The position numbers were made by a program, and so were the translations under genes. The notes below the pieces were generated by a model. It saw nothing but the letters and a program-made list of their open reading frames with translations, was not told the origin of the DNA and did not search any database. Positions 274 to 43,400 of a DNA stretch of 64,000 nt are shown here, piece by piece. Positions within the stretch are counted from its first letter, which is position 1. Each line of letters opens with the position of its first letter. This DNA is from Tubulanus polymorphus (taxonomy: Eukaryota > Animalia > Nemertea): contig NC_134030.1 of NCBI RefSeq assembly GCF_964204645.1, positions 14,880,110-14,944,109 on the forward strand, written 5' to 3'.

Positions 274-290
274 GAAAATATGTAAAATAA

Positions 291-1656: not shown

Positions 1657-1682
1657 AATGCATAATTTTTTTTGCTAAATAA

Positions 1683-2105: not shown

Positions 2106-2126
2106 TAATTTTTTTTTGCTAAATAA

Positions 2127-2561: not shown

Positions 2562-2577
2562 TTTTTTAGTTATATAA

Positions 2578-3902: not shown

Positions 3903-3918
3903 TTTTTTTATTATGTAA

Positions 3919-5692: not shown

Positions 5693-5712
5693 TTAATTTT
5701 TTTGTTAAATAA

Positions 5713-6949: not shown

Positions 6950-6981
6950 AATTTTAACTTTAATAAAAATTTATATAATAA

Positions 6982-7804: not shown

Positions 7805-8237
7805 AGAATTTGAAGAAGAGAATTCGGTAGAGAATTTGAATAAATTGTTAGGGTCTGATAGTGAAAGTGATTAAAATATTAATTATATTTAACACAAATA
7901 ATAATATTGGTTGAAAATTGTATAAAATAATAGTAAATAAAACAGGGGGTTTTAAGTATTTAAGGTATCTAATACATATCTAATACATATCTAATACAAT
8001 CTAATACATAAAATATCTTATTTTATAAACTGATATTCATATGGAAATTTAAACCTCAGTAATAATAAATAACCTTTATTATTTTCAAACTTATTCATAT
8101 ATTAGTTGAAAAAATAAAAATAAATTGGTTGAAAATTGTATAAATAATATTTATTTTAAAAAAGGGGGTTTTAAGTATTTAAGGTATCTAATGGGGTATC
8201 AGGTATTAGGGTATCTAATACATAGGTATACAAATAG

Positions 8238-8849
8238 TTAATTTATAAATTTATATTCATAGGGAAATTGTAATCTCAGTAATAATTTTGAACCTTTATT
8301 ATTCTTTAATTTATTCATATATTCATCATGTAATTCAGTAGGTATAATTTGATTTTCTTCCAATGATTGTTGCATAGATTTTTTATCTTTGTTATAAAAT
8401 AAAACTAGAAATCTTATATTCTCCCTAAAGTCTTTAACAATTGAATTATATTTTTGATTTAAAACCCATGTTGTTATCCCAAAATGTCTTCCAGAGAAAG
8501 CTAGATAACATAACTCACTTTCTCTAACTTTTGAATCATGTAAATTTGCGCAATCATCTACAATGAATAATGTATTTGATCCTTTATAAGTATCAATTGC
8601 TATTTTTATACAATCATCTAAATTTTCTTTTACTGTTTTAGGATCTAATATAATAAACTTTTTTATCTTAACTATATCTCTATTATATGTTTTATTCATT
8701 TCATAAGTAGGATAGAATAATATTATATTATCAAAATGATTCTTATGAATAGTTTCTAACAAGTCTAATATGAAATGTGTTTTACCACAGTTTGTTACAC
8801 CAGTAACTAACATATTATGCGGTTCGAATATAAATAAATCTTTATTCAT
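8238..8849 (-). CDS. A32/FtsK-like DNA packaging ATPase
   Basis: Walker A GVTNCGKT, Walker B LFIVDD, GRHFGI motif, conserved Q and R-x-N. Confidence 0.92.
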   Translation of the reverse strand: MNKDLFIFEPHNMLVTGVTNCGKTHFILDLLETIHKNHFDNIILFYPTYEMNKTYNRDIVKIKKFIILDPKTVKENLDDCIKIAIDTYKGSNTLFIVDDCANLHDSKVRESELCYLAFSGRHFGITTWVLNQKYNSIVKDFRENIRFLVLFYNKDKKSMQQSLEENQIIPTELHDEYMNKLKNNKGSKLLLRLQFPYEYKFIN

Positions 8850-9925
8850 TTATTTTTTTAATTTTACTAGATAAAATCCATTCATTAAATTTATCATCAT
8901 ATCCTTTATATTTCACCAAAGAATACTTTTTTCTTTTAAGAGTTTTTGTTATCAATACTTTTTCTATTTTGTATTCGATTTCATCTGGATTTGGTACAAG
9001 TAATAATTTCTGTTCATAGAAATAACCTAATATTTCTTCATCTTTTATATCTTCTAATTTATAAACAAATGGTTTAGTTAATATTATCTTTTTAATCTTG
9101 AATATTTCTCCTGTAAAATTAGGGGTATAACCTTTATAAAAGGTTTTTCTATATTTAGATATTCTAACGTGTTGTCCTATTCTAAATTTAGGTTCGCCGA
9201 AATCATGTGTAACAAATGCTCCATATAAATTATTCCACACTATTTTTGAATTATTTTCTTTTCTAGCTTGTATAGGTTTCATATTTATAGAACTATGTTT
9301 AGAATTATTATAACCTTTCACTAAATCATCTAACACATCGATATATTTATATGTTTCATTAGCAGTAAAATATTTCCACATGCTAGTTTTCAATGTTTTA
9401 TTAAATCTTTCTATAATAGATGCTTTTTTATCTGAGTGTGTTGAAAAATAATCTACATCGTTATCAGATAAGAGTTTTTTGAAATGTTTGTTATAAAATT
9501 CCTTACCTTCATCAAATTGTATCTTTAGCTTCTTTAAATATATTCTTAAAAGCATTTGTTACTTCTATACCAGTTTTATTTTTGATTGGAATCGACCATG
9601 CGTATCTACTGAATATGTCTATAACATTTAATATCCAGAAATATCCTTTGTTGTATTCTTCTAAGTTCTTCATGTCAATTAAATCTGCTTGCCATTGTTG
9701 ATCAATATATGAAACCATAACTTTTCTTGTTAAATAAGTTTTATCCATTTTCTTGTGGATTTGATATGTTGGTTGATTTTGTAACCATAATCTTAGTTCA
9801 CTATATTTTATATCACCATTTTCATTATCAGATTTAATTTTATTCCATAATTCTGAAACGTTAGAATATGATACTTCACTTTCTGGGTTATAATATAAAT
9901 CTCTTAAATATTGTTCTTTTTTCAT
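8842..9925 (-). pseudogene. int: Polinton rve-type integrase with C-terminal chromodomain, one frameshift
   Basis: WQADLIDM, IDIFSRYAW, QFDEGKEF, ASIIERFNKTLK (DDE triad); IEKVL...LVKYKGYDDKFNEWI chromodomain. Confidence 0.93.
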
Positions 9926-9934
9926 CTTATTTTA

Positions 9935-10164
9935 ATCCATTAATAATAATTTAGATTTAATTTCAATGGTTTTATGATTTGACTTATTTTCTGGTATGAT
10001 AGGTTTATTGTCATTGGAATCATCTTTATCATCAGTTAATATCAGTTTATATCAGTTAATTTCTTTTTCTTAGCTTTTTTTAATTCTGAAGATCTTTTAC
10101 CTAATTCTCTTGCCCATTTAATTTGTTTCTCTGATCTAGCCTTTTTCTTAACTCCATCACTCAT
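9935..10164 (-). pseudogene. Small basic protein, homolog of B 30240..30580
   Basis: MSDGVKKKARSEKQIKWARELG versus KKKPRSQKQIEWSRQLG. Confidence 0.6.
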
Positions 10165-10760
10165 TTATTTTAGTTAATTTTTGTTCTGATTCATTTTCTG
10201 TTTCGGTGTTTGGTTGTAGTAGATCTGTTTCGTTCTTACCTGATTTATATTCCATAGGTTTGATATTCGAAAATGTAATGACACCAGTAGAAATTAATGT
10301 CATAACCGATTCTAATTGAAATGAAGCATAACCAACCCATTTTTTGTAATTCAGTCATAACTAAATAGTCATTTTTCAAATCACTATATAATTTATTTTC
10401 ATCATTAATTGGTATTAACTGGTTACATAACTTAGAATAACATTTGACAATACCATCTGAAATAGAATCATTTATTCGGGCTAATCTTGCCTCTTCATAA
10501 ATCTTAAAATATTTTATTACTTTATCTGGTTTCATAGAGTCTAATTCTTGAAAAGTAATGATTCTATTTAAAAACTCTTTAGTTTTTCCACCGGCAATCA
10601 ATAGTTCTAGATGATGCTCACAATATAAATAGTATTCATAATCTATATTACAATTAACTTGAGCACAATTAGTTACAACTGTATCTTTATTATCACTTAT
10701 ACCCAAATCATCTAATGTTTTTTCAATATCAATACTATTCTTATTAGATTTCTTTGACAT
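10165..10760 (-). pseudogene. Conserved Polinton protein with C-terminal hydrophobic segment, homolog of B 29700..30292
   Basis: IEKTLDDLGI, YEEARLARINDSIS, LYSDLKNDYLVMTEL are shared with B; frameshift near 10340. Confidence 0.7.
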
Positions 10761-10997
10761 TTATATTAGAGAAAAAAAGCAAAAAAAATATTATAAGTAT
10801 TCTTCAAATGATACTAGCTAGTTAAAGCTAAAGAATTCTAGTATTGACTACTGATACTAGCTATTTGAATTTAAAGAATTTCTATTTGAATCTATTCAAA
10901 ATATAAAGTATTCTCTTTTTGAAAGAAAATATTAAAAATATAATAGAATTCACTAGCAGTTGAAGTTATTGTTTTTTTATTATATTTTATTTAAATT

Positions 10998-11090
10998 AGG
11001 ATTTAATATCTCACTACTATTGTCTATCTATTAGGAGCAGTAATTATAACTGTCCAGATAAGTCATTTCGGATCCTCGATAATAAATCCT
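10998..11090. other. Conserved structured non-coding motif, copy 1
   Basis: About 65-nt core nearly identical to 30656-30718, enclosed by the stem AGGATTTAATATC/GATAATAAATCCT. Confidence 0.7.
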
Positions 11091-11780
11091 CAAACTGAAA
11101 ATAAATTCAAAGAAACGACTGGTGGAATTACTATTTCATAAACACATTTATTTATTATACAAATTTTAGCGATCAATAATAGAACAATGGAGAACAATAG
11201 AAAAGCGGTTCAATCGGACCGGTTATTGCGCAATACTTAGTTAACAGTAAACAATACAATATTAAAACAGATATATACAATCGAGATTACATTTTTGATA
11301 TCTATATTACAAAGACCTTCAGTGTGTTACGAGAGTTTCATCCTCCATTTCTATTGATTCCTGAGTTTCACTATCCAGCAGCATTAGTTCCTTTTCCGAT
11401 GGTTGGCTTAGAATTTCTGGTTGATCTCTGTATTCCATCTAAAAGATGCCGTGAAAATGAATTACTGTACTTAAATATGTTTAAAGGTTTCCCTACTTCA
11501 TAATAACTACAAAAAACGGTACTTACATTTAGATTTAGAACTGTAAACTGTGTTTTGAGAGAGAATATCCAATACGTACTATGTATGTGAAAGTTGATTT
11601 CTAACTGCCGACGTGGCGCACGTTCGACCAAACTAATTATTTCTGCACAGATGTTCTTTGTGATGAAGTTAATTAATTCTTTAGAATTGAAAACAAGATA
11701 TATTTGGCAACATATGTTTTAGTAGTAAGCAAAAGCTATGTATTATATACATCCAAAGCTCAAATAGAATTTCCAGCTTT

Positions 11781-14743: not shown

Positions 14744-14960
14744 TGTAGTGGGCTTGATTTCATACAAGCGCCATCTATCGTTGTAATAGGTCAATTGTAA
14801 TAAAATTTTATTGATGTTGAGTACTTCCGGGTACATGGCGTGCGTGTTCGACGCTTTCGATAATAAAGTTGGTACGATGTCTGGTCATCGTGTGTTGTAG
14901 TTGTTCTTTGTCTGTCGCTGTCATCGGAGGACATCGGTCACGCTGAGAAGGGCCTCTACA
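14744..14960 (+). repeat. 5' LTR
   Basis: Near-identical to 19848..20064; TGTAGT...CTACA. Confidence 0.97.
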
Positions 14961-14964
14961 AAAT

Positions 14965-14979
14965 TGGCGCCCAACGTGG
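14965..14979 (+). promoter_or_regulatory. Primer binding site, tRNA-Lys(CUU)
   Basis: TGGCGCCCAACGTGG directly after the 5' LTR. Confidence 0.9.
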
Positions 14980-15055
14980 TAATTATCGAAGTGGACATGG
15001 TTTTTTGCGTTTTCGAAACGACCAGCCCAGTCGCACGTGGACTGGCCACGCCTTT

Positions 15056-15275
15056 CGTTAACGATTACTCCTTCAATCATCTGTTCGTTTTAACGGTGAT
15101 GTTTAACGATTACTCCTTTAATCGTTGGTTCGTTTTAACGGTAACATTTGTCGTGATTTGATGGTTATACCCTTATAATCGTCGGTTCGTTTTAACGGTG
15201 ATGTTTTAATGATTACCCCTTTAATCGTTGGTTCGTTTTAAACGGTTATGCGCTTTTAATCGTTGTTTCGTTCGG
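15056..15275 (+). repeat. Degenerate ~46-55-bp tandem repeats in the Gypsy leader
   Basis: Recurring TTTAATCGTTGGTTCGTTTTAACGGT. Confidence 0.8.
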
Positions 15276-15299
15276 TTGGTGACATCAGCGTCGTTGAAG

Positions 15300-16400
15300 A
15301 TGTCACGGAAGGAAGAAGTTGCTTCCGGATTGCGTCGTTACACGAACGACTATCTCACAACCCTTTGTGAGGTGAACCATTTGGATCTCGGTGTCGTGAA
15401 AACGAAGGAAGAGAAGATCGATGCGTTGTCAGACTTAAGTGCGATGAGGGAACCGACCCCTCCTATTACACCGTCGTCGTCTCTCCTTGACACCGAGAAG
15501 ATCTTCAAAGGATTACTTGAACATTTTTCGGCGACTCGTCGCGAGGATAATGAAGCGTTGTTGGAGACTGTACAGAAGCTGGTATCTAATAGTCGAAGCC
15601 AGCCACCGGATTCTCCTGCTATAATTATAGAGATGACTAAACTGTCTGAGAACGATGACATACATCACTGGTTCCGTATATTTGAGAATTTGGCGAATAG
15701 ATACAGAATTGCCTCGAGCGATTTAACGAGCGTGTCCGGCGCAGCAGGCGTATTTTTCGTTAAGCGATGCTGATAGAAAGGTCTACAAAACTGTGAAGGA
15801 TGCGATATTTGTCAGATATCGACTGACACCATCCGCGTATCGTCTGAAGTTCCGTAGAGAAACGAAAAGTCACTCCGAAACGTTCGTAGATTTCGTTGTG
15901 CGATTGGAAGAATATGCCAGATATTGGTTGACGCCGTCAGATTCGCTACTGGAAAATTCGGAATATGTCAGAATTCAGGATAGACTTGTTTTCGACCAGT
16001 TTTTGCCCAATCTTCGAGATGAAACTCTTCGAATGAAACTTTCACAGCGAGATGAATTGAGTGCGCGTGAACTCGCTATGTTCGCTGACGCGACTCAAAA
16101 GAAATTACTTCGCGAGGAGAAGGAAATTGAAGGGAAAAGGTTCGATTCGAAATTCGAACACAAACCGAGATCGTCAGGGTAGCTGGGAGAAACGACCTAG
16201 CGTTTCTCATCGTTACAACGATGCGTGCTACAACTGCGGTGAATTAGGGCACAAACGTCGTGATATCCCGAAACGTAGTGATCGAAATCGTCACGAGCCG
16301 AATCGTAGTGATGAAACAGTTCGCAAAGAGGTAAAATTTGTTACCGTTGGAGGGTATCGTCCGTCGTCCTTAAGAGCGAACGCGCGTGAATTTGTTCCGG
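15300..16400 (+). pseudogene. gag: Gag with SCAN-like capsid C-terminal domain and degenerate CCHC knuckle
   Basis: YRLTPSAYRLKFR...RLEEYARYWL...LVFDQFL; CYNCGELGH; frameshifts. Confidence 0.8.
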
Positions 16401-19400
16401 ACAAGTCGTTTTCCGATCCAGGGCCATTAATCGAACTTCAAGTTAATACTTCGGCAATGCATGATTTGGTGGATTCGGGTGCTTCGGTAACGTTAGTAAC
16501 CGAAGATTTGTGTAAAAAACTGTGCGTAAAGCCAGTGAAACGTAACGAAACCATTCTGCAATGGTTTGAAGGTTCCACCTTCTCGCCGTCGGGTGTCGTC
16601 ATGCTCGACATTGGTTGCTGTGGCCTGACGCTGAGTGTGGAATGTGTCGTCGTGGAGTCGATGTCAACTCCGGTTTTGATTGGCAGAGACTTTATCTACA
16701 GAGCTGGATTGACGGTGGATTTCGCCGCAGGAGATTATTGGATCTCCACATCTCGCCCTGTTATTAAGTGGCCGTTGTTGGGTACTGAGATTCGTCGTTC
16801 CCAACAACTCGAGTTCGAGGATCAACAGCCCGACGTGGATTCGCGTGATGCTGAGCCGTTTACCGACGTTGAATGCCACGAGGCCGTTGAAGCGATATTG
16901 AGCGAATTTCCTGACGTTATTAGCGATTCTCCGGGTAGAACTCGTGTCTTACAACACGAGATCGTTTTGGACGACAACACCCCGGTCAGGCAGAAACCGT
17001 ATAATCTGTCTCCTGCGAAACGTCGAGCAGCCGAAGAACAGATTCCGGAAATGTTACGCAGCGGCGTAATTGAAGAATCTAAATCACCATGGCGGAGTCC
17101 GATCGTTATGGTTCTGAAACCTAACGGAAAATTTCGTATGTGCGTCGACTACCGAAAGTTAAATGCGAAAACTAAATCGGATGCGTATCCGATGAAAAAG
17201 CTCGACGATATTCTTTCGCGTTTGCACGGTGCCCGGGTTTTCTCAAAGCTTGACATGAAGTCTGGATTTTGGCAGGTGCCATTACGGAAAGAAGACAGAG
17301 AGTTAACCGCTTTCTCCTTGGGGGAGAACCTGTATCAATTCAAGGTATTACCTTTTGGTGTAAAAAATGGACCTTCCAGCGCCTCATGGAAAAGGTTTTG
17401 AGAAAGCACGGGTGCCTCGGAAAGTTTTGCGAGGTCGAATTTGACGACATCATTATTTATTCCCTCACATGGGAGGAGCACTTTGAGCATTTAAGAATAG
17501 TGTTACAATGTAGGCAGGTCTTACTGCAAGTCTAGAAAAGAGTAGATTTTTGTGACCGATACAGTGTATGTAGGTCACGGGGTATCTAAAATCGGTATTT
17601 CCGCTGGGCCGGAAAAGGTTCAGGCTATCGTGGACTATCCTGCTCCTACGAATCGTCGACAGTTAGATCGTTTCCTTGGAATGGTGGGTTGGTTTTCCAA
17701 ATTTATTCCAAATTGCTCCACCATAGCTGAACCGCTTTTTCAGTTACGTAGAGAGGAAATTAGTTGGTGTTGGTCAACTGAATGCGAAGGTCCATTTCTC
17801 AGGCTTAAGGACCTTATCTGCTCCGCCCCTTGCTTAACTCATCCGGATCCGGATGCTGATTTTGAATTACATACTGATGCGAGTGGGGTGCGTCTGGGTG
17901 CGTCTCTGAACCAGGTTCAAGATGGAGTCCTTAAGCCAATCGGTTTTAGTAGTAGAACATTAAATGTTGCCGAGCGCAACTATAGTACGACAGAAAGAGA
18001 AATATTAGCGGTCGTTTGGGCCTTAGAAAAGTGGCGACTCCTAGTTGAAGGGCGACTCATTACTGTTGTAACTGACCATCAGGCGTTGACGTGGATTTTC
18101 ATTACAAAGACTAATTACAAAGACTGATTAATTTATCGCCCCGGCTTTATCGTTGGGTACTGAGTGTTCAGGATTTCGATTTCGAAATAAGGTATAGAAA
18201 AGGAAAACTCCACGTCGTGCCTGATGCGTTAAGTAGGGATCCTAGGTTCGATCCGATTTTGTCGGTTGGTGTTATTGATGTAGAATTCGGTGATGATATT
18301 TGTCAGGACAATAATTGTATTAAACCTACCGGTGATTTGATAGATTGGATCCAGTGCGATGTTTGTAAATATTGGTATCATGATGTTTGTGTGGGAGTCG
18401 ATCCAGAGGATGCCGAGAATTTAGATTTTAATTGCAAGAATTGTCTTCTCGAGAAACGAGATGCTGATCCTCTGGATCGGGTCCCACTTCCTATTATTGA
18501 TCTTCCAATTCCTGGAATGGATCAGTTAGCCCAGCTACAACTGGATGATCCTTTTTTGGGCTCGGTCATAAAGTATTTGCAAGATGGTGAGGGCGACCAT
18601 GCATCTACTAAGCTGAAGAATTTTTCCAAAAACTGTGTTTTTGAGCAATATCTTTATAGAATAACGAAGTCAGGTAGACAAGTTGTAGTACCTGATATTT
18701 TGAGGTATCATGTAGTGAGGGAGATGCATGATTGCCCCACGGCTGGTCATTTCGGTAGAAAAAAGACCATGTTGAGAGTTCTCAAGTTTTTCTATTGGAT
18801 CGGTGTAGGAAAAGATATACGTAATTATGTCAGAGGCTGCGAGGTTTGTCAAAAAATTAAGGCTCGGTATAGAAAACCTGCTGGGTTTATGGAGTCTGTA
18901 GTTTCAAACTCGCCCTGGGAATTGGTGGGTGATCTCGTCGGTCCCTTGCCGGAGTCATATTCAGGTCATAAATATATTTTAGTTGTAAGAGGTCATTTCT
19001 CTAAGTGGGTCGAGTTTTTCCCTTTAAAAAGAGCAACTGGGAAAGAAGTAGCCATATGTCTCGTGAGGGATGTGTTTACCAGGTTCGGTCCACCATCACG
19101 GTTGTTAACTGACAACGGTTCCCAGTTTGTTTCGAAGTTTTTGAAGGCTGCGTGTAGTCATTGGGGAGTATCGTTAATCCACTGTACACCGTACCACCCT
19201 CAGTGTAATTGGGTGGAAAGGGTTAATCGAGATTTGAAATCTATGTTATCCTGTTCAGTTTGGGAGAATGGGAGTGATCATAGGGGTTGGGACGTGCACT
19301 TAGCAGAGTTTAGGTTCGCGATCAACTCCGTTGAAAATAACAGTACCGGATAAAGTCCGGCGGTGCTCGCTCTGTCTCGAGAGTTGTTTCATCCTGTTAT

Positions 19401-19770
19401 TAATCGTGTTAATCGTAAGGATCCAGCCTTAGTTCCGGTCGCTGAGGCCTTGAAGCGTTTTTGTAAATATAAAGTTGCCGCAGACCGGAAGCGTGTAAAG
19501 TTAGCTATTTCGCGAATGTCAGCCCAAGCTCAGTTAAGAAAACAAGGCTATGATAAGAAACGTCGAAATGTAGATATTAAAGTGGGTGACAAGGTGTTAG
19601 TTAAGACTCATTTTTTGTCAGATGCTTCAAAGAATTTTGCATCAAAATTAGCTCCTAAGTGGAAGGGTCCATATGTTGTTGAAGAAAGAGTTGGTAGTGT
19701 AGATTTTAGAATTCGAACTGGTCGTGGTCTTGAGACTTGGCATGCTGACAAGTTGAAGTTGTTTTATTAA
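16401..19770 (+). pseudogene. pol: Pol: protease, RT, RNase H, PHD finger, integrase
   Basis: LVDSGAS; RMCVDYRKLN, LDMKSGFWQV, FDDIII; TDASG...EREILAV...TDH; H-H-C-C zinc finger, DLVGP, TDNGSQF, VERVNR; KWKGPY. Confidence 0.93.
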
Positions 19771-19835
19771 TAATTGTTTTGAATACACAGTTGTAGTTTA
19801 TTTGGTCATCTCTGTCTTTAATAGAGCCAGATCTT

Positions 19836-19845
19836 AGGAGAGGGG
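19836..19845 (+). promoter_or_regulatory. Polypurine tract
   Basis: AGGAGAGGGG two bases before the 3' LTR. Confidence 0.9.
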
Positions 19846-19847
19846 TA

Positions 19848-20064
19848 TGTAGTGGGCTTGATTACATACAAGCGCCATCTATCGTTGTAATAGGTCAATT
19901 GTAATAAAATTGTATTGATGTTGAGTACTTCCGGGTACATGGCGTGCGTGGTCGACGCTTTCGATAATAAAGTTGGTACGATGTCTGGTCATCGTGTGTT
20001 GTAGTTGTTCTTTGTGTGTCGCTGTCATCGGAGGACATCGGTCACGCTGAGAAGAACCTCTACA
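19848..20064 (+). repeat. 3' LTR
   Basis: Matches the 5' LTR with a few substitutions. Confidence 0.97.
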
Positions 20065-20375: not shown

Positions 20376-20888
20376 GGCTATAAATTTTACGACTCAAAGA
20401 ATCTTTTTCTCAAAAAAGCCGCTTTGTGTTTGATGCAAAATATCATTTGCTTTAAAAATGTGTAACTAGGCCAAATCAAAAGGATATTTCAAGAGCAAAC
20501 TTTGCCGGGCCAAGAGCCATATTGAATTCAATTTTTTCCCAACCATTATGCCTCTTTAATCATAACATTATTTACCCTATTTCAAGATCTTAGGCCTACA
20601 AGTAGAGAGAGGGCCTACGTTGGGTTCAAATCGGAATTTTAAGATTTATTTCATTTAATTCCAGGTTTTCACTGTAGATTATTAAAGACATGTGGCATTT
20701 TTGGGAGTTCATAGTTGTTTGATAATCCATCATTTGTAAGTGTAAGGCTATTTGAGGGATTCGAAACCGACATTTTGTAAATTTTGTAGCTTTATTACGT
20801 TTAATTCCAGATGTTAATCATGACAGGGTTCATTTTGGGGGTTTGTCAGCGAGTTGGTATGCTGTCGGCAGAAGTAGTTTGATAATTC
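20376..20888. repeat. Segment of large inverted duplication (pairs with 53225..53737)
   Basis: Reverse-complement similarity visible throughout. Confidence 0.88.
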
Positions 20889-20925
20889 CCCACTCATCAC
20901 CACAAGTAATTTTTTTTCCTTATAA

Positions 20926-23900
20926 ATGGGAGAGAATAAGACAGAACACATTGATGTTAATGAAAATCAATATTATTGTCCATATTGTAAAAAATACATT
21001 GATAAATCTCGAAAATCGCGTCATGAAAAATCTTCAAATCATATAAAAAATGTTATAGATTTTGAAACTTCAGAAAATTCCAATGAAAGAAAAGAACGAT
21101 TAGAAAATATGAATGTGGATGAAATAAAATGTGAAGTTTGTAATGAATTTATAGTAAAAAGGAATTATAATAGACATCTCGAATCACAAAAACACCATCA
21201 AAATTTGAGTAATTATGTTTTAGGAAAAGATTATTTCGATGATAAACCTCAAAAAGTAAAAAACCAACTTCAAAAACTAAATCCATTTCAAATAAACCTT
21301 ACATGGAAAATGTTAGAAATTATATTGATTCACTAGAAATAAAAGATACAATTGAAATATTAGAAACATTACGTATTAAAATTGGTCCTACAGCTATTAT
21401 ATTTAGATTTTTTAAAGGTACAACAATAGAAGATTATAGTAAATTTAATGAAATAATAGAAAAAATACTAGATTTGATAACAGATGTTGAATATCCAAAA
21501 ATTAGTATCTCTGGGAAAGTAAGTTTTTTAAAGTCAGAAGAGAAAATGGATTATAATATTCAAACACTCTCTGAAGAAATAATTTCAAAAACGCAAATAA
21601 AAGAGAAGTTAGAAAAAATATTTAATGAATTTAAACGTCATATTGAAGAAAGATATTTTGAGGGTTCTGGTTTATCATTAAATGAAATTATATTTTTAGA
21701 TTTAAGTGTTTATAATACAAAAAGAAATAAAACATCAAAAAGTAATAAAATGTTTAAAAATGATTCAAACTTTACAACAGAAAAGGAGGATATTAAAGGA
21801 TCATATTATATTAAATTACCATTTACAACAAAAGCAGTGATAAATGTTCAAAATGAAGATAATAAATGTTTTCTGTGGGCAATTATTAGTTGCTTACACG
21901 CAACAGAAGATATTACACATAGTTTTAGAATAACAAATTACCGGAAATATGAAACATTATATAAAATTGATCAATATCCAGTAACTATAAAAATGATTTC
22001 TAAAATAGAAAAAGTTAATAATTTAAAAATAAATGTATTCGAATTAATGCAATTACCAAAGACAAAAGGTGAAAATATTAAAGATTATACATTGGAAGCT
22101 TTATATTTAACAGAATATTATGATGATGAAAATGCTATAGATTTGTTATATTACAAAAAAGATGAAAATGAACATTATATGTGGTTAAAACAAATTGATT
22201 TATTCTTTAGAACAGAAAGTGATCATCATCGTAAAATTTATCTATGTAGAAAATGTTTATCTAAATTTATGACTGAGAATACATTATTAAAACATAAAGA
22301 ATTATGTGATAATAAAGATTTTTGTAAATTAATAATGCCAACAGAAAAAGATTATAAATTGCAATTTACTAATCATAAATTTAAGAATATTGTTCCATTT
22401 GTAATTTATGGGGATTTTGAATCGTTGAATAAAGAATTAACTGATCAAGATAGAAAAGAAATATATAATAGAAAGCAATTATTAAAATCAATGGATAAAG
22501 GAAATGAATTAAATGAAGACACAACACAAGACCCACCAATTATAAATACAATTAAAAAAGTTCATCAAAGAGCTGCTGCTTATGGAATTTATATAAAATC
22601 AAATTATCCTGAATTATATGAAAGTCAATATATTTCTTTTAGAGGTAAAAATGTAGTTAATGTTTTTTGTGACAAAATGATTGAATTAGAAAGTGATTTT
22701 GCAAAATTATTAAACAAAAATAAAAGAATAGTTATGACAAAAGAAGATGAAATTGATTTTAATTATGCAACTCATTGTTGTTATTGTGAAAAACGTTTTT
22801 ATTCATTTGATAAAAAAGTTAGAGATCATGATCATTTCAATTCAAAATATCGTGGAGCTGCTCATGAAGATTGCAATTTACAAGCTAAGAAAGTTAATTT
22901 CGTACCAATATTATTTCATAATTTATCAGGCTATGATACCCATCTATTTATAAAACAATTATCAAAGAAATTGGGTACAATTAATCAAGAAATATAAGAA
23001 TATAATGCTATGAATGGTGTAAATGTAAGAAAATATGATTTTAAACTATTAGCTTAAACATCTGAAAATTATATTTCATTTCCATTTGGTTGCATTAGAT
23101 TTTTAGATTCCTATAGATTTCTAGCAAGTTCATTAGATAATTTATCAAAATAGTTGATAATGATTTTGTTATAACTCGATATTATTATCCAAATGAACAA
23201 GATTTTAAATTATTGAGATATAAAGGTGCAATTCCTTATTCATTTTATAAAACACACAATGATTTTAATGTAACAGAATTATTAAAAGATCAATTTTATG
23301 ATCAATTAAAAGAGGAGTATGCGAAGTGTTTAATAGAACATTAAATATTTGGAACCATTTTAAGATGAAAAATCATGGTGAATTAGTTGATTTATATTTA
23401 AAATCAGATGTTATGATATTGGCTGACATATTTGAAAAATTTAGAGAAGTTAATTTGAATCATTTTAATGTTGATCCTTGTTATTGCTACTCTAGTCCTG
23501 GTTTAACCTGGCAATGTGGTTTAAAATATACAAATGTAGAATTAGATTTATTAAAAGAACCAGACATGGTTTTATTATTTGAAAAATCAATTAGAGGTGG
23601 AATTAGTGGTGTTATGGGAGGTATTTTAAAGCAAATGATGAATATAAATTATTATATATTGACGCCAATAATTTATATGGTTGGGCAATGATGCAACCTC
23701 AACCATATAAAAATTTTATATTAACAGAAGTTGAAAATGATGATAAAACTGATTGGGAAAGCGCAATTGCGAGTTTAAAAGATGAAGCACCAATTGGTTA
23801 TTTCTTTGTTGTTGATTTAGAATATCCTGAAAATATAAAGTTTAAAACAAGAAACTTACCTTATTGTCCAGAACATTTAACTGTAGATGATAGTTATTTA

Positions 23901-25262
23901 AGTGAATACCAGAAGAAAATAAAACCGAAAGATCATGTTTTTACAGAAAAATTAATACTTACTCAAAATAATAAATACAATTATATCGTTCATTATAGAA
24001 TGTTAAAATTTTATCTAAAACAAGGAATGAAATTAAAGAAAGTACATAGATATATTGAATTTAATCAATCGAAGTGATTAGAAAAATATATAGATTTCAA
24101 TACTCAACAGAGAACCATATCAAAAACAGATTTCGAAAAAGATTTTTTTAAATTAATGAACAATAGTTTTTATGGTAAAACATGCGAAAATATTAGAAAT
24201 AGAAATGATATTGAATTAGTAAATAATTCTGAAAGATTAAGACACCTACAATCAAGTCCTAGGCATTTAGGAAATAAAAGATTTGAAGATTATTTAACCG
24301 CAGTTAAAAAGAACGTCAATGAAATTTAATAAACCTATATTCATTGGTTCAACTGTTTTAGAAGTATCAAAATTATTAATGTATGATTTTTATTATAATG
24401 TTTTACAACCACTTTTTGGGGAAAAGCATATTGAAATATTATATTTTGATTCTGTAACAGCTGACACCCCAATATTATTAAAATGTAATGATAAAATATT
24501 GATAAGAAGAATTTCAGAAATAATTCCAAAACAAAATGAATGTTATATTTCATATGGTGAAAAAGAATTAATACAAATAAATGGATTAATGGATGTTTGG
24601 ACAAGAAATGGATGGAAAAAATTAAAGAATATTATTAGGCATAAAACAAAAAAGAAAATCTATAGAGTTAGAACTAAATTAGGGTTTGTAGATGTTACAG
24701 AAGATCATAGTTTAATTAAACGAAATGGCTATGAAATAAAACCAACTGATATAAAAATTGGAGATGAATTATTACATAAAAGATTTTTCCAAAGAATGAA
24801 TCATATGTCATTTGATGAAATAATTGATAATATTTATAATATAGAACCCGAAACATTAGAAGAAAAAGAATATTTTATCAAAGGATTTTTCATGGGCGAT
24901 GGTTCAGCAGGTGTGTATAATTATGTATGGGGTAATAAATATTGTTGGTATTTATGCAATCAAGACTTAAAATTATTAGAAAGAATTAAGAAATTCTGTG
25001 AAGAAGTTTATTCACATAAAACATTTAGAATCATGGATCATATGAAATCATCAGCAGTTTATAGAATACTTGTAAATAATCCTAAAGATTTTGCTATAAA
25101 ATATAATGATGAATTCTATATTCATACAATAGTGAAAAGTAATACTTCAACAAAAGAAAAGATAGTTCCAGATAATGTATCAAATGCAAAAAATAATTTA
25201 AGAAAATGGTTCTTCATTGGATTCTACGCAGCAGATGGTGCTAAAAAATTTACAAAGGATAA
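20926..25262 (+). pseudogene. polB: Protein-primed family B DNA polymerase (C2H2 fingers, vOTU-like protease, exonuclease with EndoVII insert, polymerase, intein), C-terminally deleted
   Basis: NKCFLWAI...EHY; YGDFES (Exo I); RDHDH...YRGAAHEDCN; FHNLSGYD (Exo II); YLKSDV (Exo III); SIRGG; YIDANNLYG; KLMNNSFYGK; NKPIFIG; ILYFD. Several frameshifts and stops. Confidence 0.93.
24451..25262 (+). mobile_element. Intein with LAGLIDADG homing endonuclease in PolB motif C, C-terminally truncated
   Basis: LYFD|SVTADTPILL (block A), VDVTEDHSL (block B TxxH), FIKGFFMGDG (block C), FFIGFYAADG (block E); blocks F/G absent. Confidence 0.9.
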
Positions 25263-26390
25263 AAATAAGGTGGTCAAGGTGATTATTATATTGATATCAC
25301 TTATAAACGTGAAAACAAAATCAGAATCAACTTTAGAAAAATTAGAACCAGATAGAATTAAAAGAATTAGTAATAGTAATGTAATGATTGATGTTACGCA
25401 AAAAGAAAGAGATGATAATATAGACGTATTTAAACAAAAAATTAATGAATTATTAGAAATAATCAAAAAGAAATCAGAAACAGAAACCACTTCTGAACAG
25501 AATAAAACTTCCAAAACTAGTAAACTTAAATCAAATAAAGTTCCAATTGAAAAACTTTTACCGAATGGATTAATTGATGCAACAGATCAAGAATTAGAAG
25601 ATTTAAATAATATATTTTCTGTTGAAGCAATTAGAGAAATTAAAAGTATAAGGCTTGCATCTGATAAAATTGCGCATGATAAAAGTATAAGAGATTTTAA
25701 AATTAGAACTTTAGAAAAAGAATTAACTGATAAAAATAAAGAAAAAGAACAATTAAAGTCTGATTTAGATCATCAATTAATTTATGAAATAGAATAAAGG
25801 CAAAAAGAATTACGTTTAGAAAAAGAAAAAGATGATTTAGAATATAACATAGAATTACAAAAAGAAGAAATTAAATTATTATTAAAATCATATGATTATA
25901 ATATTAATAGATTAAAAGTTATTTTTAAAGATTTGTTGATTAAACCAAATTCTGAAATATCATTGAAAGATAGAATAAGTTATTATTTAAATTAGAAGGA
26001 ATAACAATTCTTTCAATTCTAACAGCTGTAACTATGTTATTTACAACAATTGGTTTAGCAATATCAAATGCTTTAAAATCTACTCCTACTCCAAATAAAC
26101 CGGATAAACCCCCGAATGATAATAATTCTTTACAAGATAAAGTTAAAGATGGTTTGAAAAAATTAGCAAAATATTTATGGGAACTATCTAAAAAATCTGC
26201 TGCAGCTTTACCAGGAATTATTGCATCAATTGTTGGTTTTATATTGAAATCTGCTGGGAATATTCTTAACTTTGCCGCTGAACATATTATTTTATTTTTA
26301 ATTACAGTTGTAAGTGCTATTATTTTTGGGTTAGTGAATATGATATCAAAAAGATATCAAGAAAAAATAATTAATTTTTTTTTTAAATAA
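25263..26390 (+). pseudogene. C-terminal part of the coiled-coil/multi-TM protein, fused to the intein by deletion
   Basis: Aligns with element A ORF 4517 (REIK, LEKELT, MLFTTIGLAISNALKS...). Junction position approximate. Confidence 0.8.
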
Positions 26391-27639
26391 ATGATTGGGA
26401 GTTATATAAGTCCTTCTACGATTTCTAGAATATCTAACGCTATTAAAGCAGAAAGATCGCATCATATAATTACACATAATCCTTCAAATATTAATCCCGA
26501 TGAAACTTTATACGTTAGAATTCCTAGATTAACACAAAATACTTTTTATGTTCCAAATAGTATTTATTTATCAGCCGATATAAAAGTAACTGGTCATGAT
26601 AATAATTATGTTGTCGATAATGTTGGGAGATATTTGATTAAAAAATTAACTATTAAGATTGGTCCAGAAACAGTTTTCTCATTAGATGATTATAATTTAT
26701 TTATGCATTATAAAGATTTATGGTTAACTAAAGAAAATAGAAAAAATATGATATTTCAGGGTATTCAATCGGAAAACCATAATAAATTAAGATCTGAAGC
26801 CAATAATGCAGTAGTAACTAGTGCCGCAGATAATTTGATAAAAAAGATTTATGGAAGCAAATATAAAATTCCATTAGACTTTGAATTGATGAATAATAAT
26901 GCACCTTTATATAAATATGTAATTCAAGAAGATATTATATTTGAGATAACATTTGCTCCTGTAAATGAAATTGTATTATCTAGCGTTGTTAAAGATATGG
27001 GTTATAAATTATTAAATATATGTTTAGAATATGACACAGTAACTAATGAAAATATTGCTAGCACAATTCAAACTCAATACAATCAAGGATTTTCATTATT
27101 ATATGATATATATTGATAAATTTAAAACTGTAACTATTAATGCAAATGATGAAATAATTAATGAGAATATTAACTTCTCAAGAAGATCTATTAAAGGTAT
27201 ATTAATATTTTTTACCATTGCAACATATTCTAATGGTGCAATAAAGGTAGATATTTATTATAATCCTGAAATAACAAAAGTAGAAATAACTATTGAAGGT
27301 ATAGCAAATAAAATATTTTGTCAAGGAATGAGAATGATAGATCAATGGCCAGAAATTAGAAAACATTTTATGAATGAAAACGTAAAATCATTTGAAAATT
27401 GTAATATTAATCAAATTGATTATTATACCGGCAATAAATACGCATTATGGTTAGATTTTAGAACAACAGAGGATAATTCATTACATGGTTCTGGGAAAAA
27501 ACTACAGAACACTAAAGATGGAATACAATTATTCATGAAAAAGAAAAAAGGAAGCTTAAATTTTAAAATGCACATTTATATTATATCTGACGCACAATTA
27601 AATATTGTAAATTCACAATTAGATAGTATTCAATATTAG
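26391..27639 (+). CDS. Major capsid protein as two overlapping ORFs (26391..27116 and 27103..27639)
   Basis: Both halves are open; the only break is the one also present in element A. Confidence 0.75.
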
Positions 27640-27669
27640 AAATATAAAGTTAAAATTAAGGATATATAA

Positions 27670-28788
27670 ATGAGTGGTAAAAAAACTCCTAATACTAAAG
27701 AACAATATTTAAGAAATTTATATTACAACCCTGAGAGTTCGGTTGCTTATTCTTCTACCAAAAATATATGGCGTCAAGTAAAACAAGATAAATTAGATAA
27801 GATAATCCCACAAAATTTAGTTAAATATAAAGATATAAATGAATTTATGTTAGAACAACCAACATACACAACACATAAAAAAATTGTTAGAAAATATAAA
27901 ACTCGTAAAACTATGGTAAGTTATGTAGATCAACAGTGGCAAGGAGATTTAATTGATATGAAAAATGTTAAGAAAGATAATGATGATTATTGGTGGATAT
28001 TGAATATAATTGATATTTTTAGTCGTTATGTATGGAGCTTCCCACTTTATAGAAAAGGTGCTGTACAAACATCAAATGTTTTAAGAAAATTTCTTTCGGA
28101 TGATAAACTAAGACCAGAAAAAATACAATTTGATGACGGAAAAGAGTTTGATTATTCACTTGTTCATGAACTCTAAGACAATCATAATATTAAATATTTT
28201 TCAACAAAATCGGATAAAAAAGCAGCAGTTGTTGAACGATTTAATAGAACATTAAGAACAAGAATGTGGAAATATTTTACAGCACATAATACTTTTAAAT
28301 GGATTGATGTTTTACCAAAATTGATAGAAGGATATAATAATTATTATCATTCTTCTATTGGAATGAAACCTATTGATGCTAGAAAACCTGAAAATGCTGA
28401 AATTGTTTGGAATAATTTATATGGAGCATTTCTTGTAGATGATTTTGGTGAACCTAATGGTCAAAATGTTAGAATTTCTAAGTATAAAAAGATATTTGAC
28501 AAAGGATACGATCGAAATTTTACTAGGGAAATATATAAAATAAAAAAGGTAATAACAACAAAACCATATGTCTATAAATTAGAAGATTTAGATGGTGAAG
28601 AAGTTGATGGGTATTTTTATGAAGAAGAATTGAGTTTAACTACTGAAAATCTAGAACAAGAATATAAAATTGAAAAAGTATTAAAAACAAAAACTATTAA
28701 AAGAAAAAAATATTCTTTAGTAAAATGGGTTGGATGGCCAGATAAATTCAATGAATGGATATTATCAAGTAAAATTAAAAATATATAA
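27670..28788 (+). pseudogene. int: rve integrase with chromodomain, one premature stop
   Basis: WQGDLIDM, QFDDGKEF, AAVVERFNRTLR, LVKWVGWPDKFNEWI. Confidence 0.93.
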
Positions 28789-29397
28789 ATGAATAAGGAA
28801 TTATTTATATTTGAGCCTCATAATATGTTAATTTCTGGCGTAACAAATTGTGGAAAAACTTATTTTATATTAAATTCATTAGAAACTATTTATGAAAACT
28901 ATTTTGATAATATAGTATTATTTTGTCCAACATATGAATTTAATCAAACTTATGATAGAAATATTACTAGAAATAATAAATTTATCATATTAGATCCTAA
29001 AACAGTAAAAGAAAATTTAGATAATTGTATTAAAATAGCAATAGATATTTATAAAGGATCAAATACATTATTCATTATAGATGATTGTGCTAATCTACAT
29101 GATTCAAAAGTTAGAGAAAGTGAGTTATGCTATTTAGCTTTTTCTGGCAGACATTTTGGGATAACAACTTGGGTTTTAAATCAAAAATATAATTCAATTG
29201 TTAAAGACTTTAGAGAAAACATTAGATTTCTAATTTTATTCTACAATAAAGATAGAAAATCGATGAAAAATGCACTTGAGGAAAATGATATTATTCCACA
29301 TGATTTACATAATGAATATATGGATAAGTTGAAAAATATTAAAAGATCAAAATTACTATTTAGATAACAACACCCATTTGAATATGAATTTATTTAA
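28789..29397 (+). pseudogene. A32/FtsK-like packaging ATPase, premature stop near the C-terminus
   Basis: GVTNCGKT, LFIIDD, GRHFGI; frame continues QHPFEYEFI after the stop at 29365-29367. Confidence 0.9.
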
Positions 29398-29399
29398 AT

Positions 29400-29672
29400 T
29401 CAACTGGCTTGTTAATCTAGTTGAATTCTAGTTACATTCTAGTTGAATTCTAGTTATTAGTAGTTGGAACAAAAATCAACTAGATTTAACAATATTTTAA
29501 CTAGCTTGTTAATCTAGTTGAATTCTAGTTACATTCTAGTTGAATTCTAGTTATTAGAAGTTGGAACAAAAATCAACTAGATTTAACAAGAAATAAATAA
29601 AAACAACAATATTTCAACTAGCTTGTTAATCTAGTTGAATTCTAGTTACATTCTAGTTGAATTCTAGTTGCA
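29400..29672. repeat. Three intergenic repeats built of CTAGTTGAATTCTAG units
   Basis: CTTGTTAATCTAGTTGAATTCTAGTTACATTCTAGTTGAATTCTAGTT x3. Confidence 0.9.
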
Positions 29673-29699
29673 ACATCACAACTAATTTTTTTGTTATAT

Positions 29700-30292
29700 A
29701 AAAAATAGGTGAAAAGAAAATAAAATCTAAAAATGGTGATGTTCCAATTGAAAAAACTTTAGATGATTTAGGAATAACAGAAAACAAATTAACTCCAGAT
29801 GATGGTGCTTTAAATAATGTTACAACAAATAATAATTATGAATATTATCTTTATGGTAAACATCAATTAGAAATATTAATAGCATCTGGAAAATGTAAAA
29901 ATTTTATCGGTAAAAATTTAACTTATAATGAATTAGATACAATGAAATCAGATGAAATTATTAGATTATTTAAGATTTATGAAACCGCGAGAACAGCTAG
30001 AATTAATGATGCGATATCAGAAAATGTAGTAAAAGGTTATAGTAAATTATGTAATTATATACTACCAATTGAAGATGAAAATAGATTATATTCCGATTTA
30101 AAAAATGATTATTTAGTTATGACTGAATTAAATAAATGGATTGGATATTTATCATTTCAATTAGGTGGATTTATGACATTATTATCAACTGGAGTTATAA
30201 CATTTTCAAATATTGAAAGTAAAAATATTTCTATAATAAATGAACAAGGTGGAAGAAGTGAAGAAAAAACCGAGATCACAGAAACAAATTGA
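29700..30292 (+). pseudogene. Homolog of A 10165..10760
   Basis: IEKTLDDLGI upstream of and in frame with ORF 29942; start codon degenerate. Confidence 0.7.
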
Positions 30293-30580
30293 ATGGTCTC
30301 GGCAATTAGGAATTAAATCACAAGAATATACAAAAGCTGTAAATGAAAAAATAAGTAATAAAAATGGTGAAAATATTGTTATTTCTACTCATTCTAATAA
30401 TAGAATATTTGATAAATGTCTATATTTTACAGTTGGATTTGTAATTGTATTCATTTTGATTGGGTGTAATTGGTATAAGAAATCAAATTAAATTCATGAT
30501 ATTAATAATTCTGAAACAACTGCTATCAAAAATGAAAATACTTCTGAAATTCCAAAATTGATAATAAAGAAAATGGATTA
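30240..30580 (+). pseudogene. Small basic protein with TM segment
   Basis: TAAATG start; homolog of A 9935..10164; ends ...KMD* after a stop at 30491. Confidence 0.6.
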
Positions 30581-30623
30581 ATATTTTAGAAAAAAAGCAA
30601 AAAAATAATTTTTTTTTATTAAT

Positions 30624-30729
30624 TGAATATCACCATGTGGGTGCCATACGGCACCATCTCACTACTTTTGTCTATCTATGCGGAGCAATTAAATTGTCCA
30701 GATAAGTCATTTCGGATTCTAGATATTCA
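30624..30729. other. Conserved structured non-coding motif, copy 2
   Basis: Closing stem TGAATATC/GATATTCA, extra hairpin GGTGCC-ATAC-GGCACC, same core as 10998..11090. Confidence 0.7.
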
Positions 30730-30759
30730 TTATTTTTATTAATTTATTTTTTTTCAAAT

Positions 30760-31086
30760 TTAATCAACAATTTCTAAATCATGATGGCCATCTTCATTTT
30801 TTCCATGATAGATTATTTTAAATCCTTTTAAATCTTTTAATTCCTCTGTACTCAATGAAACCCATTTATCAGGTAAAAATACTTTAAATTCTCGCGATGT
30901 ACTAACATTACAGTAGCTTAAAATCGCTGATACTTTCTCTCCATATTTAGTTTTTATCTTTTCTAATTTCAATATTTTATGTTCAGTTTCTTTTATAACA
31001 TCAACTAACTTTTTTATTTCAAATTGTTTTTTTGCTGGTTTTATTCTGTTATTTATTGTTGCTAAGAATGCTTTTCTACTTCCCAT
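30760..31086 (-). CDS. Small conserved Polinton protein (108 aa), start codon inside the right TIR
   Basis: Intact ORF; homolog of 1..273. Confidence 0.75.
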   Translation of the reverse strand: MGSRKAFLATINNRIKPAKKQFEIKKLVDVIKETEHKILKLEKIKTKYGEKVSAILSYCNVSTSREFKVFLPDKWVSLSTEELKDLKGFKIIYHGKNEDGHHDLEIVD

Positions 31087-31436
31087 TTATAAGGAAAACA
31101 AATTACTTGTGGTGATGAGTGGGAATTACTTCCCCTTATATATAACAAACACGCTATTAACCGTTCTCACCCAAGCCTCACAGCATCTATTTATCCGAGC
31201 ACAGTTGACACGCAATCAATGTACTACAGTAATAGCACACGCGTTAATAACCGTTCTCAGTAGCGACTCACTGTATCCATCTATCCACGCGCAGTTGTTG
31301 TTACGCGCACTCACTGTATATGTGTATCACATAGCAATCGTCCGTTCTCACTAGAGCCTAGCTGTGATGAGTGGTGTCTCGACCTCTCGACCTCTGGTAT
31401 GAAACCCACATCTTCCAATTACTAGTTTGACTAACA

Positions 31437-40412: not shown

Positions 40413-43400
40413 GACATAATAGACAATATAGACATCCTTGAAAATACTCCGGATGGGAATGGTACCACCCACAGTACTCAAATGGTATTATTTCAAGCAA
40501 ATAACCAGCAGTCAATATCCAGTGAAGACAAGAAGATACGAAGAGATCGAAATCTATGTAGAAATAAAATACGACAATTTCATGAACTCGATTATGTTTA
40601 TAATAGAGGTAGGTAAAAATCAGCAAGGTCACTAAAACTCCTTCAGATCATAATAACTGAAATCAAATTGTGTCGTTCATCAGTGAATTTTGATTGTTTC
40701 AAATCTAATTTAGGACGAGGCACGCCAGGCAAATTTGAACTTAACACGGACTGGTTTTTACCAAGTTCTGAAAGAGAAATGACTAGAAATGTTGAATTGT
40801 GCTGGCTTTTGTCAAGAATCAATGGTCATAAAGTCGTTCCAGGTTGGTCTGGGTACAATGCATTGTGTGAAATGGCCAAAGTGGAGAATGAAAGATTTTG
40901 CACACCAGTAACCAAAGTGGCAGTGCTGCCAATTTTACCATCGCAAGCGGACAATGATGATACAGTTATCACTGTTCTGAATCGATTTTGCCATATTTCC
41001 GAATCTCTGAACCAACCCTTCGTCATAGTATCAGGAGACCAGCCTCTTTACGGCCGTATGAAGGAGATCTTATGGCGCAACGCACCAAAGTACAATCACA
41101 TTGTTACTGTCCTTGGTCATCTTCATATATTAATGAATTTTCAAAAAGCTATAGGACAGCACATGGCTAAATCTGGATTAAAAGACTTATGGATAGAGTC
41201 TCAATTGTTTGCCAAGAATAGCATTGACGCGATTCTAGAGGGCAAAGCATACTACAGAGCGATCAGAGGTCATCTTATTACATATGAAGCAATTAAGCGC
41301 CTACTGTTAGAAAGCACAATCAATCATCTAGCTATCAAATATCCAGTAGCACATGATCGAATCGTCAATAATATTCAACAGCAAATTAAATTTAAGCTAG
41401 AAAAAAACCAAACTATGTATCTGCGTAAGTATTAAGAAAAGTAACTTGTTTTACATAGGCCTAAATAAGTCATTTCATCACGCTGCACATGTTCTTTATT
41501 TTAGAAACAATTAACGAGCTATCACAGATCATATCTGAAAGTCAGATTCGAGATGCTCTAATAAGACGAACGAAAACAGGAACTGAGCGCTTTTGGGATA
41601 CATATTTAGAGATGGTCGAAATAATGCTTGATTTTATCCGTTCCTGCAGAACTGGAAATTGGCAATTGCATTTAGATTCGTTTGAAGCCATGCTCCCATG
41701 GATGGCCATTTATGATCACTATAATTATTCAAGGTGGGGCGTAGTCTATCTGACTGAGATGAAGGCTTTATCATCAACAGCTCCTATGGTACACAGAGAA
41801 TTTCTTCGAGGTAAATTTTGAAAATAAAGAATTTGTGCTTTGAAAAAGATTTTGAAAAGTCTATTTCATAAATAATTTTATTTAAGGAAATTTCGTTGTG
41901 AAGTTTTCGGATGGGTATTTCAACAAAATCCCACTAGATCATGGGACTGAGTGGATTAATAAGATATGTAAGCTATCAAATGGTATCATCGGTATCAGCA
42001 GAGACGAACAAACTCGAGACAAATTTTGTCTGACATGGGCTGTTAAGTCATCTTTGAGTCAACAGTGTAGACTGCTTCTCGGTCTTGTTCAAGATGGAGA
42101 TAAAATCGTTACGAGGAAGGATGCATTACCGTCTACGATTCATAATGATGAAATCTCAATTGGTAATGTAATGGAGACATTTAAACGGTTTGAGGTAAAT
42201 AGAATATCTTGGATGTAAAGAAAAATATTACTTTCGACATTTTATTTCGTGATGATGTTTATTGCAGCACTTCAACAGTAACCCGAATGATATCGTATCA
42301 TTATGCTCCAAAGAGATTGCCACGAAGGAAATTTCCAACGACCTACTGACAGCAAAATCCAGAGGAGAAAACAAAATTGAAATGTTTATTTCGGAAAGAT
42401 TACAGAGTGATAAGACACCATTTTACGCACCAATTTTGAAATGCAAGTCAAGGACATTTGCTGATTTGTACAAAAAACAACCTGTAACCTGTAACAAAGT
42501 TCAAACGAAAGAACACTCAAAGGTGCTACAGAAAATGTTAGTGGTGGCCAATGAGGGTAGACATATCGATTTAGATTCAGTTCTCACACATGAGTTGTGC
42601 GACTTGCCCCTATCACTAGTTTCTAATGACAATTCAATGCGAAAAACTACAAAAAGCAAAATGTTCAAGATCTTGATAGATGAAACGAGAGTGGAACCGC
42701 TTGAAGAAATGCCAAATCATGCACTGTATCATAAACGTGCATTCGTCGTTGATGGATTATTTTATTGCTGATGGTGTATCATCTTGGGCATTTGAACATT
42801 CACGCGTGGCTTGTAACCCAGGGAAAGGCATCGAAATGTTACAATATCAATTTAATCTCAAATGGCCTGCCAAACAACATAATTGAGAGCATATTAGGAT
42901 TTCATGCTCTAACGGGATGTGACTCTACTTCATCTTTTGCTGGATATGGTAAAATAAAATGTTGATCTGAATACAAGAAACAGCCAGAACTACTGAGAGG
43001 TATTGGTCGAGATCGAGAAACTGAACAAGCTGAAGCTTATGTATGTAAACTATACGGTACAAACTCAGATTCAGTTGATGTTAATAAATGCCGTAGTGAC
43101 ATCTTTCGGAAAGGAAATATAGAATTAGAGAAGTTACCCCCAACTAAAGAAGCATTACAACGTCATATAGCCCAAACTATCAAGCAAAAATATGGCTACA
43201 TGCAAACCAGCCCCTATATGAACATGGACAAGCAGCTGCAACCGGAGGCTGGGAACTGAAAGGGAATAATAAGCTGGTTCCTATCTTCAAAACTATTCCT
43301 GCTATTCCAGCTGCATGTCCCGAATTGGTTTCTTGTAAATGTAAGACTGATTGCAGCCGCGCCAACTGTAAATGCAGAAAGAATATTGTCACTTGTACAT

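Follow-up and report, generated by a model that had tools for sequence, protein, structure and literature searches.

Evidence for a broken class 1 intein in the catalytic motif of a Polinton DNA polymerase

The DNA analysed in this study, a stretch of 64 kb referred to here as the window, contains a Polinton whose DNA polymerase gene is interrupted in catalytic motif C. It is very probable that the interruption is a broken class 1 LAGLIDADG intein, complete members of whose family are predicted to splice and likely spread by cutting intein-free copies of the polymerase gene. The intein allele (pol-c) is a known one; the class of its carrier is apparently new.

Examination of the sequence and its translation showed that motif C of the window polymerase is split at position 24451 by an in-frame insert of 271 residues (YFD-SVTADTP), with ILYFD ending at 24450 and SVTADTPILL beginning at 24451. 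The last piece of the N-extein of this protein-primed polymerase, located by translation and tblastn at 24313 to 24450 on the forward strand, ends with motif C (...ILYFD). The insert (24451 to 25263, forward strand; sequence, TIGR01445, and tblastn) corresponds to the N-terminal 271 of about 354 intein residues and includes Ser1 in block A, TEDH in block B, and LAGLIDADG helices 1 and 2. The motifs TEDH (24697), FIKGFFMGDG (24874), and FFIGFYAADG (25210) are all in the same open frame (24298–25797), and catalytic acidic residues are present in both helices (GFFMGDG and GFYAADG). At the stop-codon frequency of the element (9.0%), a run of 271 open codons would arise by chance with a probability of approximately 8e-12. 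The insert passed the curated model TIGR01445 (intein_Nterm) with 31.5 bits, against a cut-off of 24.5 (E = 2.6e-7). Its score with Pfam Intein_splicing was 29.2 bits, under the cut-off of 35.8, and the truncated insert scored 20.0 with LAGLIDADG_3, under the cut-off of 22.5. These results agree with an earlier note on this DNA, which had recognized a LAGLIDADG intein in motif C from the SVTADTP block, TEDH, and the two helices. From its sequence, the insert appears to be what is left of a now broken class 1 intein (pol-c allele) with a LAGLIDADG domain, a remnant that could not itself splice.

The extent of the damage was determined by tblastn comparison with relatives. Similarity to the complete relative P0002 stops at window position 25263 (P0002 residue 1453), and relative to P0002 the last 84 intein residues and the entire C-extein are missing. 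With four relatives as tblastn queries, blocks F and G, the terminal Asn, Thr+1, and the C-extein were found nowhere in the window, in agreement with the deletion proposed in the earlier note. Past the deletion joint, the intein frame continues into the remainder of the downstream gene and reaches a stop at 25795. The note had also held that this copy is dead because of the deletion. The deletion is real, but it is not the sole lesion: the tblastn alignment of the polymerase is broken into six segments, its frame changes four times before the intein, and there are in-frame stops.

The insert sits in an AT-rich element of about 10.2 kb, bounded by 49-nt inverted repeats whose arms are 96% alike (left arm, 20883 to 20931, forward strand; right arm, about 31081 to 31130, reverse strand, pairing with the left). 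Frameshifted pieces of a protein-primed PolB, with stops, were located by tblastn at 21246 to 24305 on the forward strand; compared with the intein-free polymerase P0259, the N-terminal piece was 62% identical and the polymerase piece about 70%. Four further genes follow on the forward strand: the remainder of a coiled-coil/membrane-protein gene (25264 to 26356), which is entered in the intein frame and is a homologue of window ORF 4487–5692; a major capsid protein-like gene in two pieces (26391 to 27639; Capsid_N, E = 1.3e-3); a retroviral-like integrase with a chromodomain, also in two pieces (27670 to 28788; rve, E = 3.4e-7; Chromo, E = 1.2e-4); and an A32-like packaging ATPase (28789 to 29367; Pox_A32, E = 6.8e-12). 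In the Pfam searches the ATPase scored above the cut-off, and the integrase, capsid, and polymerase pieces scored below it; PF03175 was passed by the relatives P0002, P0268, and P0006. From its protein-primed PolB, capsid-like gene, integrase, ATPase, and terminal inverted repeats, we assign the element at 20883–31130 to the Polintons. The element genes, the terminal repeats, and the relatives passing PF03175 bear out the previous identification of the carrier as a protein-primed Polinton polymerase.

No target-site duplication was evident by eye at the element ends, the left of which abuts another repeat. Among the 13 ORFs scanned there was no Pfam match to an adenovirus-like maturation protease or a minor capsid protein, which may lie in the deleted part. 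A related Polinton copy at window positions 1–11100 matches 25564–27653 at 88%. In that copy, the integrase and ATPase are inverted with respect to the capsid gene, and positions 7113–7400 are a tandem array of 24-nt units; its polymerase is absent from the window.

Searches with the window protein yielded 263 longer matches and 39 of similar length, with 1891 representatives. A complete intein of 337–354 aa, beginning with Ser and ending with Asn followed by Thr-Asp-Ser, was present in seven clusters (P0002, P0003, P0006, P0008, P0009, P0268, and P0381). Long exteins of the protein-primed type accompany it in six of the seven; P0381 has 11 flanking residues and was assigned on the basis of its intein. 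All seven have retained TEDH, both LAGLIDADG aspartates, the block F Asp, the terminal Asn, and Thr+1, and the window insert has kept both catalytic LAGLIDADG aspartates as well. The intact Asn-Thr junction restoring DTDS, which had been anticipated for full-length copies, is thus present in each complete relative. LAGLIDADG_3 scored above its cut-off in all seven, and Pfam Intein_splicing in two (P0003 and P0268). Intein identity to the window was 62% for P0002 and 49% for P0381. The complete carriers are classed as probable Polintons by their polymerase. Scans for the carriers in DNA gave 597 pattern matches for P0002 in metagenome contigs and six for P0008 in viral contigs, with none confirmed in either set; alignment scans for the DNA context of the carriers gave 160 loci, and the 127 that were parsed comprised 125 RNA-primed PolBs, two unclassified, and no protein-primed polymerase.

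A structural model of P0381, built from a 36-row alignment, had a pLDDT of 91.8. Foldseek matched this model to the intein-endonucleases TliVMA (E = 5e-18), PhoVMA, PI-PfuI, and PI-SceI, with E values ranging from 5e-18 to 2e-12, and also to I-DmoI; when P0381 was compared with the PDB by sequence, the matches were weak and the best had an E value of 0.003. As modelled, P0381 has a Hint fold with an embedded endonuclease. Within the P0381 cluster (P0453–P0466), many short ORFs contain little beyond the intein, and several end N-TNS instead of N-TDS; the short intein-only ORFs are probably decayed copies. The same intein family was also observed at a non-allelic site in type II topoisomerases (P0012, P0108, P0120, and P0169), for three of which gyrase/topoisomerase Pfam domains are given.

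The intein-free YFDTDS alleles suggested by the earlier note were found. Of the 120 best-matching relatives of the P0002 extein, out of 5492, four were filled, 112 were empty, and four were truncated at the site. The window's nearest polymerases (P0259, P0260, and P0262; about 70%) were all empty and read HIEIMYFDTDS, compared with HIEILYFD in the window. A dragonfly sequence at 40% was the one eukaryote identified by name in these top 120 polymerase matches; the labels 'Sulfurimonas' and 'bacterium', attached to P0261 and P0399, respectively, probably reflect binning errors.

Filled and empty alleles were compared most closely in the P0268 family. Fifteen of the 136 members of the P0268 90% cluster, each on an ENA contig of between 57 kb and 1 Mb, comprised seven filled alleles, six empty alleles, and two that ended short of the site. 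With two further empty relatives added to the comparison, filled and empty alleles were 97–99% identical over residues 1–1031, dropped to 57.5% and 60.0% identity within ten residues of the site on either side, and returned to 95% at the C-terminus. The empty alleles were only 75% identical to each other just before the site. Departures from DTDS were found in 27 of the 43 empty alleles of the intein-rich P0268 lineage vs. three of 69 outside it (Fisher test, p = 9e-12, which is descriptive only because kin were counted as independent). The 43 included 19 alleles with DCDS, four with DTDA, and two with DTDG; some of the departing alleles may be decayed copies. The dip in identity at the site could reflect selection against cleavable empty sites, co-conversion of the flanks, or both. 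Because divergence is concentrated in this way at the insertion site, homing would seem to be active now or to have been so recently.

Raw reads of the source organism had a mean depth of 235 over the intein, 349 just upstream of it (a ratio of 0.67), and 94 in the bin containing the joint. The ratio of 0.67 could result from empty copies or from faster divergence of the intein. Of the 27469 aligned reads, 992 were at least 99% alike, and one contig of the source organism bridges the N-junction of the intein. Because of this read depth, the read identities, and the bridging contig, we conclude that the intein is present in many diverged copies in the source organism. The marine metagenome run X5 (share 0.16) gave short pieces only.

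Trees were used to examine the ancestry of the intein. In a quick tree of 108 inteins, all 22 rows labelled protein-primed formed one clade (support 100); seven of these 22 have short exteins and were labelled by their flanks only, and the giant-virus-type motif-C rows were the best 60 of 168. In a more careful tree of 56 rows, all eight protein-primed rows again formed one clade (100/100). When this tree was rooted on motif-B inteins, with archaeal inteins left out, the protein-primed clade fell inside the motif-C inteins of RNA-primed PolBs, including those of giant-virus contigs L001 and L004. The non-nested topology was not rejected by the AU test (p = 0.095), and transfer from virus to Polinton is the likely direction. 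An 11-row giant-virus clade had been considered as the sister group on the basis of a common GFPL ending in block G; the tree gave no supported join.

Two giant-virus-type inteins that were compared pairwise were 37–42% identical to Polinton-type inteins, and inteins of protein-primed carriers were 40–62% identical. Within the main polymerase group, identities of intein and N-extein were 45/46, 47/48, 65/66, and 76/81%, and for the window vs. P0002 the intein and extein identities were 62/56%. Since intein and extein divergence run together in this group, residence in Polintons would be old. The intein of P0006 is 46% identical and its N-extein cannot be aligned, suggesting a jump to a distant polymerase. 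On the extein tree (68 rows, after the empty rows were thinned from 114 to 54), intein presence required nine changes, eight of them forced by starred branches. Mostly vertical descent with losses would explain the near-equal divergence in the main group no less than repeated homing would. The intein seems to have been acquired once and long ago, rather than by a recent jump. The element of the source host probably inherited the intein with its Polinton lineage, because the giant-virus inteins are only 37–42% identical, the Polinton-type inteins form one clade, and intein and extein have diverged almost equally. The link to giant viruses drawn in the earlier note is real but old.

An unspliced insert parts the two aspartates of the catalytic motif, and a PolB of this kind should be inactive. 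We propose that, as in known intein chemistry, Ser1 would make the N-O shift with the aid of TEDH, Thr+1 would attack, and the terminal Asn would cyclise. Splicing would rejoin motif C (YxD-TDS), and because the insert splits this motif, the polymerase would work only after splicing. The LAGLIDADG domain would cut the empty site, and repair would copy the intein into the break. Because the site is catalytic, escape would be possible only via precise loss or a change of the target. After homing, the empty alleles would have changed target sites, the filled alleles would have flanks altered by co-conversion, or both. In the history that the trees suggest, the pol-c allele may have entered once, long ago, from the PolB of a large DNA virus and then stayed for a long time in Polinton lineages; it would also have jumped at least once to a protein-primed polymerase that is very distantly related, and individual families would have gained or lost it repeatedly.

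One alternative, which we regard as improbable, is that the intein splices but no longer homes, having entered once long ago and then been inherited vertically and lost repeatedly; the dip at the site would be the trace of old recombination between subfamilies. This would account for the way in which intein and N-extein identities track each other in the main group, and the changes on the tree cannot separate gain from loss. It is difficult to reconcile with filled and empty alleles that coexist at 98–99% identity and have their divergence focused on the ten residues to either side of the site, or with empty alleles that also differ from each other there. The retention of both catalytic aspartates in the seven complete inteins and in the window likewise speaks against it, and P0006 requires a jump between polymerases that cannot be aligned.

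It is less likely still that the insert is foreign to Polintons, either because a fragment of a giant-virus polymerase was captured recently in this one host, or because the assembly is chimeric or contaminated. Giant-virus-type PolB inteins in the same motif are certainly abundant, as the preponderance of RNA-primed loci in the alignment scans indicates, but the nearest of these are more distant from the insert than its relatives in protein-primed carriers are, and those relatives form a single clade. The intein also matches its extein in composition (GC/GC3 of 24.8/14.4% and 25.4/16.0%, respectively), and reads and contigs of the source organism carry the intein in many diverged copies and bridge its junction. 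The complete relatives and the read data largely refute this explanation.

The least probable explanation is a domesticated Hint-plus-nuclease (Hedgehog- or BIL-like) that remains part of the polymerase or does no more than cleave it: the insert separates the catalytic aspartates and should leave the unspliced protein inactive, the terminal Asn and Thr+1 are kept in every complete relative, and near-identical alleles lack the insert cleanly. Such a domain would be akin to the HNH/VSR inserts, and fused nucleases are known in Polinton polymerases (PMC10748475, in part).

The preferred explanation, an intein that splices and homes, has close parallels in known systems. As described in the available portion of Ogata 2005 (PMC549080), the Mimivirus PolB intein pol-c, like other giant-virus PolB inteins and those described here, has a YGD-TDS site, a Ser start, an Asn end, Thr+1, a length of about 350 aa, and a LAGLIDADG domain; the polymerase motif at the insertion site is treated in part of PMC2777158. 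The ending GFPLIVKN-TDS is common to the IMG/VR giant-virus contigs L001 and L004 and the Polinton-type inteins. In the giant-virus systems the carrier is an RNA-primed PolB (PF00136), whereas the intein here lies in the protein-primed polymerase (PF03175) of a Polinton, an integrating element; the exteins do not align with giant-virus PolB, and the inteins are in a separate clade.

The HNH/VSR inserts of Polinton pPolB2 (Jeong 2023, PMC10748475; Krupovic 2024, PMC11161782; both in part) are likewise nucleases inside Polinton polymerases, and Krupovic 2024, citing Jeong 2023, suggested that the nuclease inserts 'result from intein invasions'. The inserts of Jeong 2023 are HNH/VSR, whereas here a splicing domain and splice-junction residues lie in the catalytic motif; the available main text of that paper contains no use of intein, Hint, or LAGLIDADG, and such intein terms are likewise absent from the accessible text of Starrett 2021. 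In Green 2018 (PMC5784728, in part), nuclear inteins are given for fungi, alongside inteins of chloroplasts and 136 from viruses, including invertebrate iridoviruses. Gallot-Lavallee 2023 (PMC10710043) reported viral-like PolBs with inteins in two algae and a labyrinthulomycete, in each case on nuclear scaffolds, and 'Polinton' occurs 0 times in its accessible portion. Both systems resemble the present one in having inteins on eukaryotic chromosomes, but the available parts of the two papers contain no animal nuclear intein and no Polinton, and here the carrier is multicopy and mobile, with filled and empty alleles coexisting. Inteins or homing nucleases are mentioned in general terms only in the accessible parts of PMC12220804, a 2026 preprint, PMC5718144, PMC3671162, and PMC13768754. 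No Hint/LAGLIDADG intein in Polintons was found in the literature searched, much of it available in part; Repbase, InBase, supplements, and most subscription journals lay outside the search.

Surveys of eukaryotic inteins, as far as their available text goes, record them from fungi, algae, certain protists, and large DNA viruses, and include neither animal chromosomes nor protein-primed polymerases. A conserved clade of Polinton-polymerase inteins would extend inteins to animal nuclear DNA via an endogenous virus, would give sequence evidence for gene exchange between Polintons and large DNA viruses in shared cells, and would turn Krupovic's remark on intein invasions into a testable case. The families with filled and empty alleles at 98–99% identity would offer a ready system for the study of homing and target-site escape, and the Polinton intein families could be a source of new split-site inteins and endonucleases. 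More tentatively, and with a little less than even confidence, we suggest that animal genomes host a live and overlooked cycle, in which a giant-virus-derived intein-endonuclease has long resided in Polinton polymerases, has jumped between distant groups, and is engaged in an arms race in which empty copies survive through an altered catalytic motif (DCDS, DTDA, DTDG) and altered flanks; TAAATG gene starts would suggest that the element replicates together with a cytoplasmic large DNA virus, a setting in which exchange could occur.

The gene starts were counted over the whole window, in which no host gene was found. TAAATG starts 12 of the 32 ORFs of at least 70 aa in the two Polinton copies (20883–31130 and 1–11100), vs. 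6% expected (p = 1.6e-7), including ORFs that begin inside both terminal repeats. Elsewhere in the window, it starts none of seven ORFs in an LTR element and one of 15 in the other flanks. TAAATG is the poxvirus late start signal (PMC3061580, in part). The enrichment is compatible with replication beside a cytoplasmic large DNA virus; it names no donor.

Other repeats were noted elsewhere in the window. A Gypsy-type LTR retrotransposon at 14744–20064 has 217-nt LTRs that are 97% alike and a PHD finger between RNase H and integrase. The ORF pieces at 40617–42771, which had no Pfam match, resemble a decayed transposon gene. At 57517–59684 there is a decayed BEL/Pao-like retrotransposon with matches to DUF1759 (E = 1.5e-4) and DUF1758 (E = 2.6e-3), both below the cut-off; BEL/Pao elements are described as a metazoan group in PMC3118150. 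Together with the dragonfly match among the polymerases, this element makes an animal host probable. The region 53000–57200 is an AT-rich, near-perfect palindrome (arms 54003–55029 and 56040–57065, at 99%) with one ORF repeated on both arms and a 24-nt tandem array between them.
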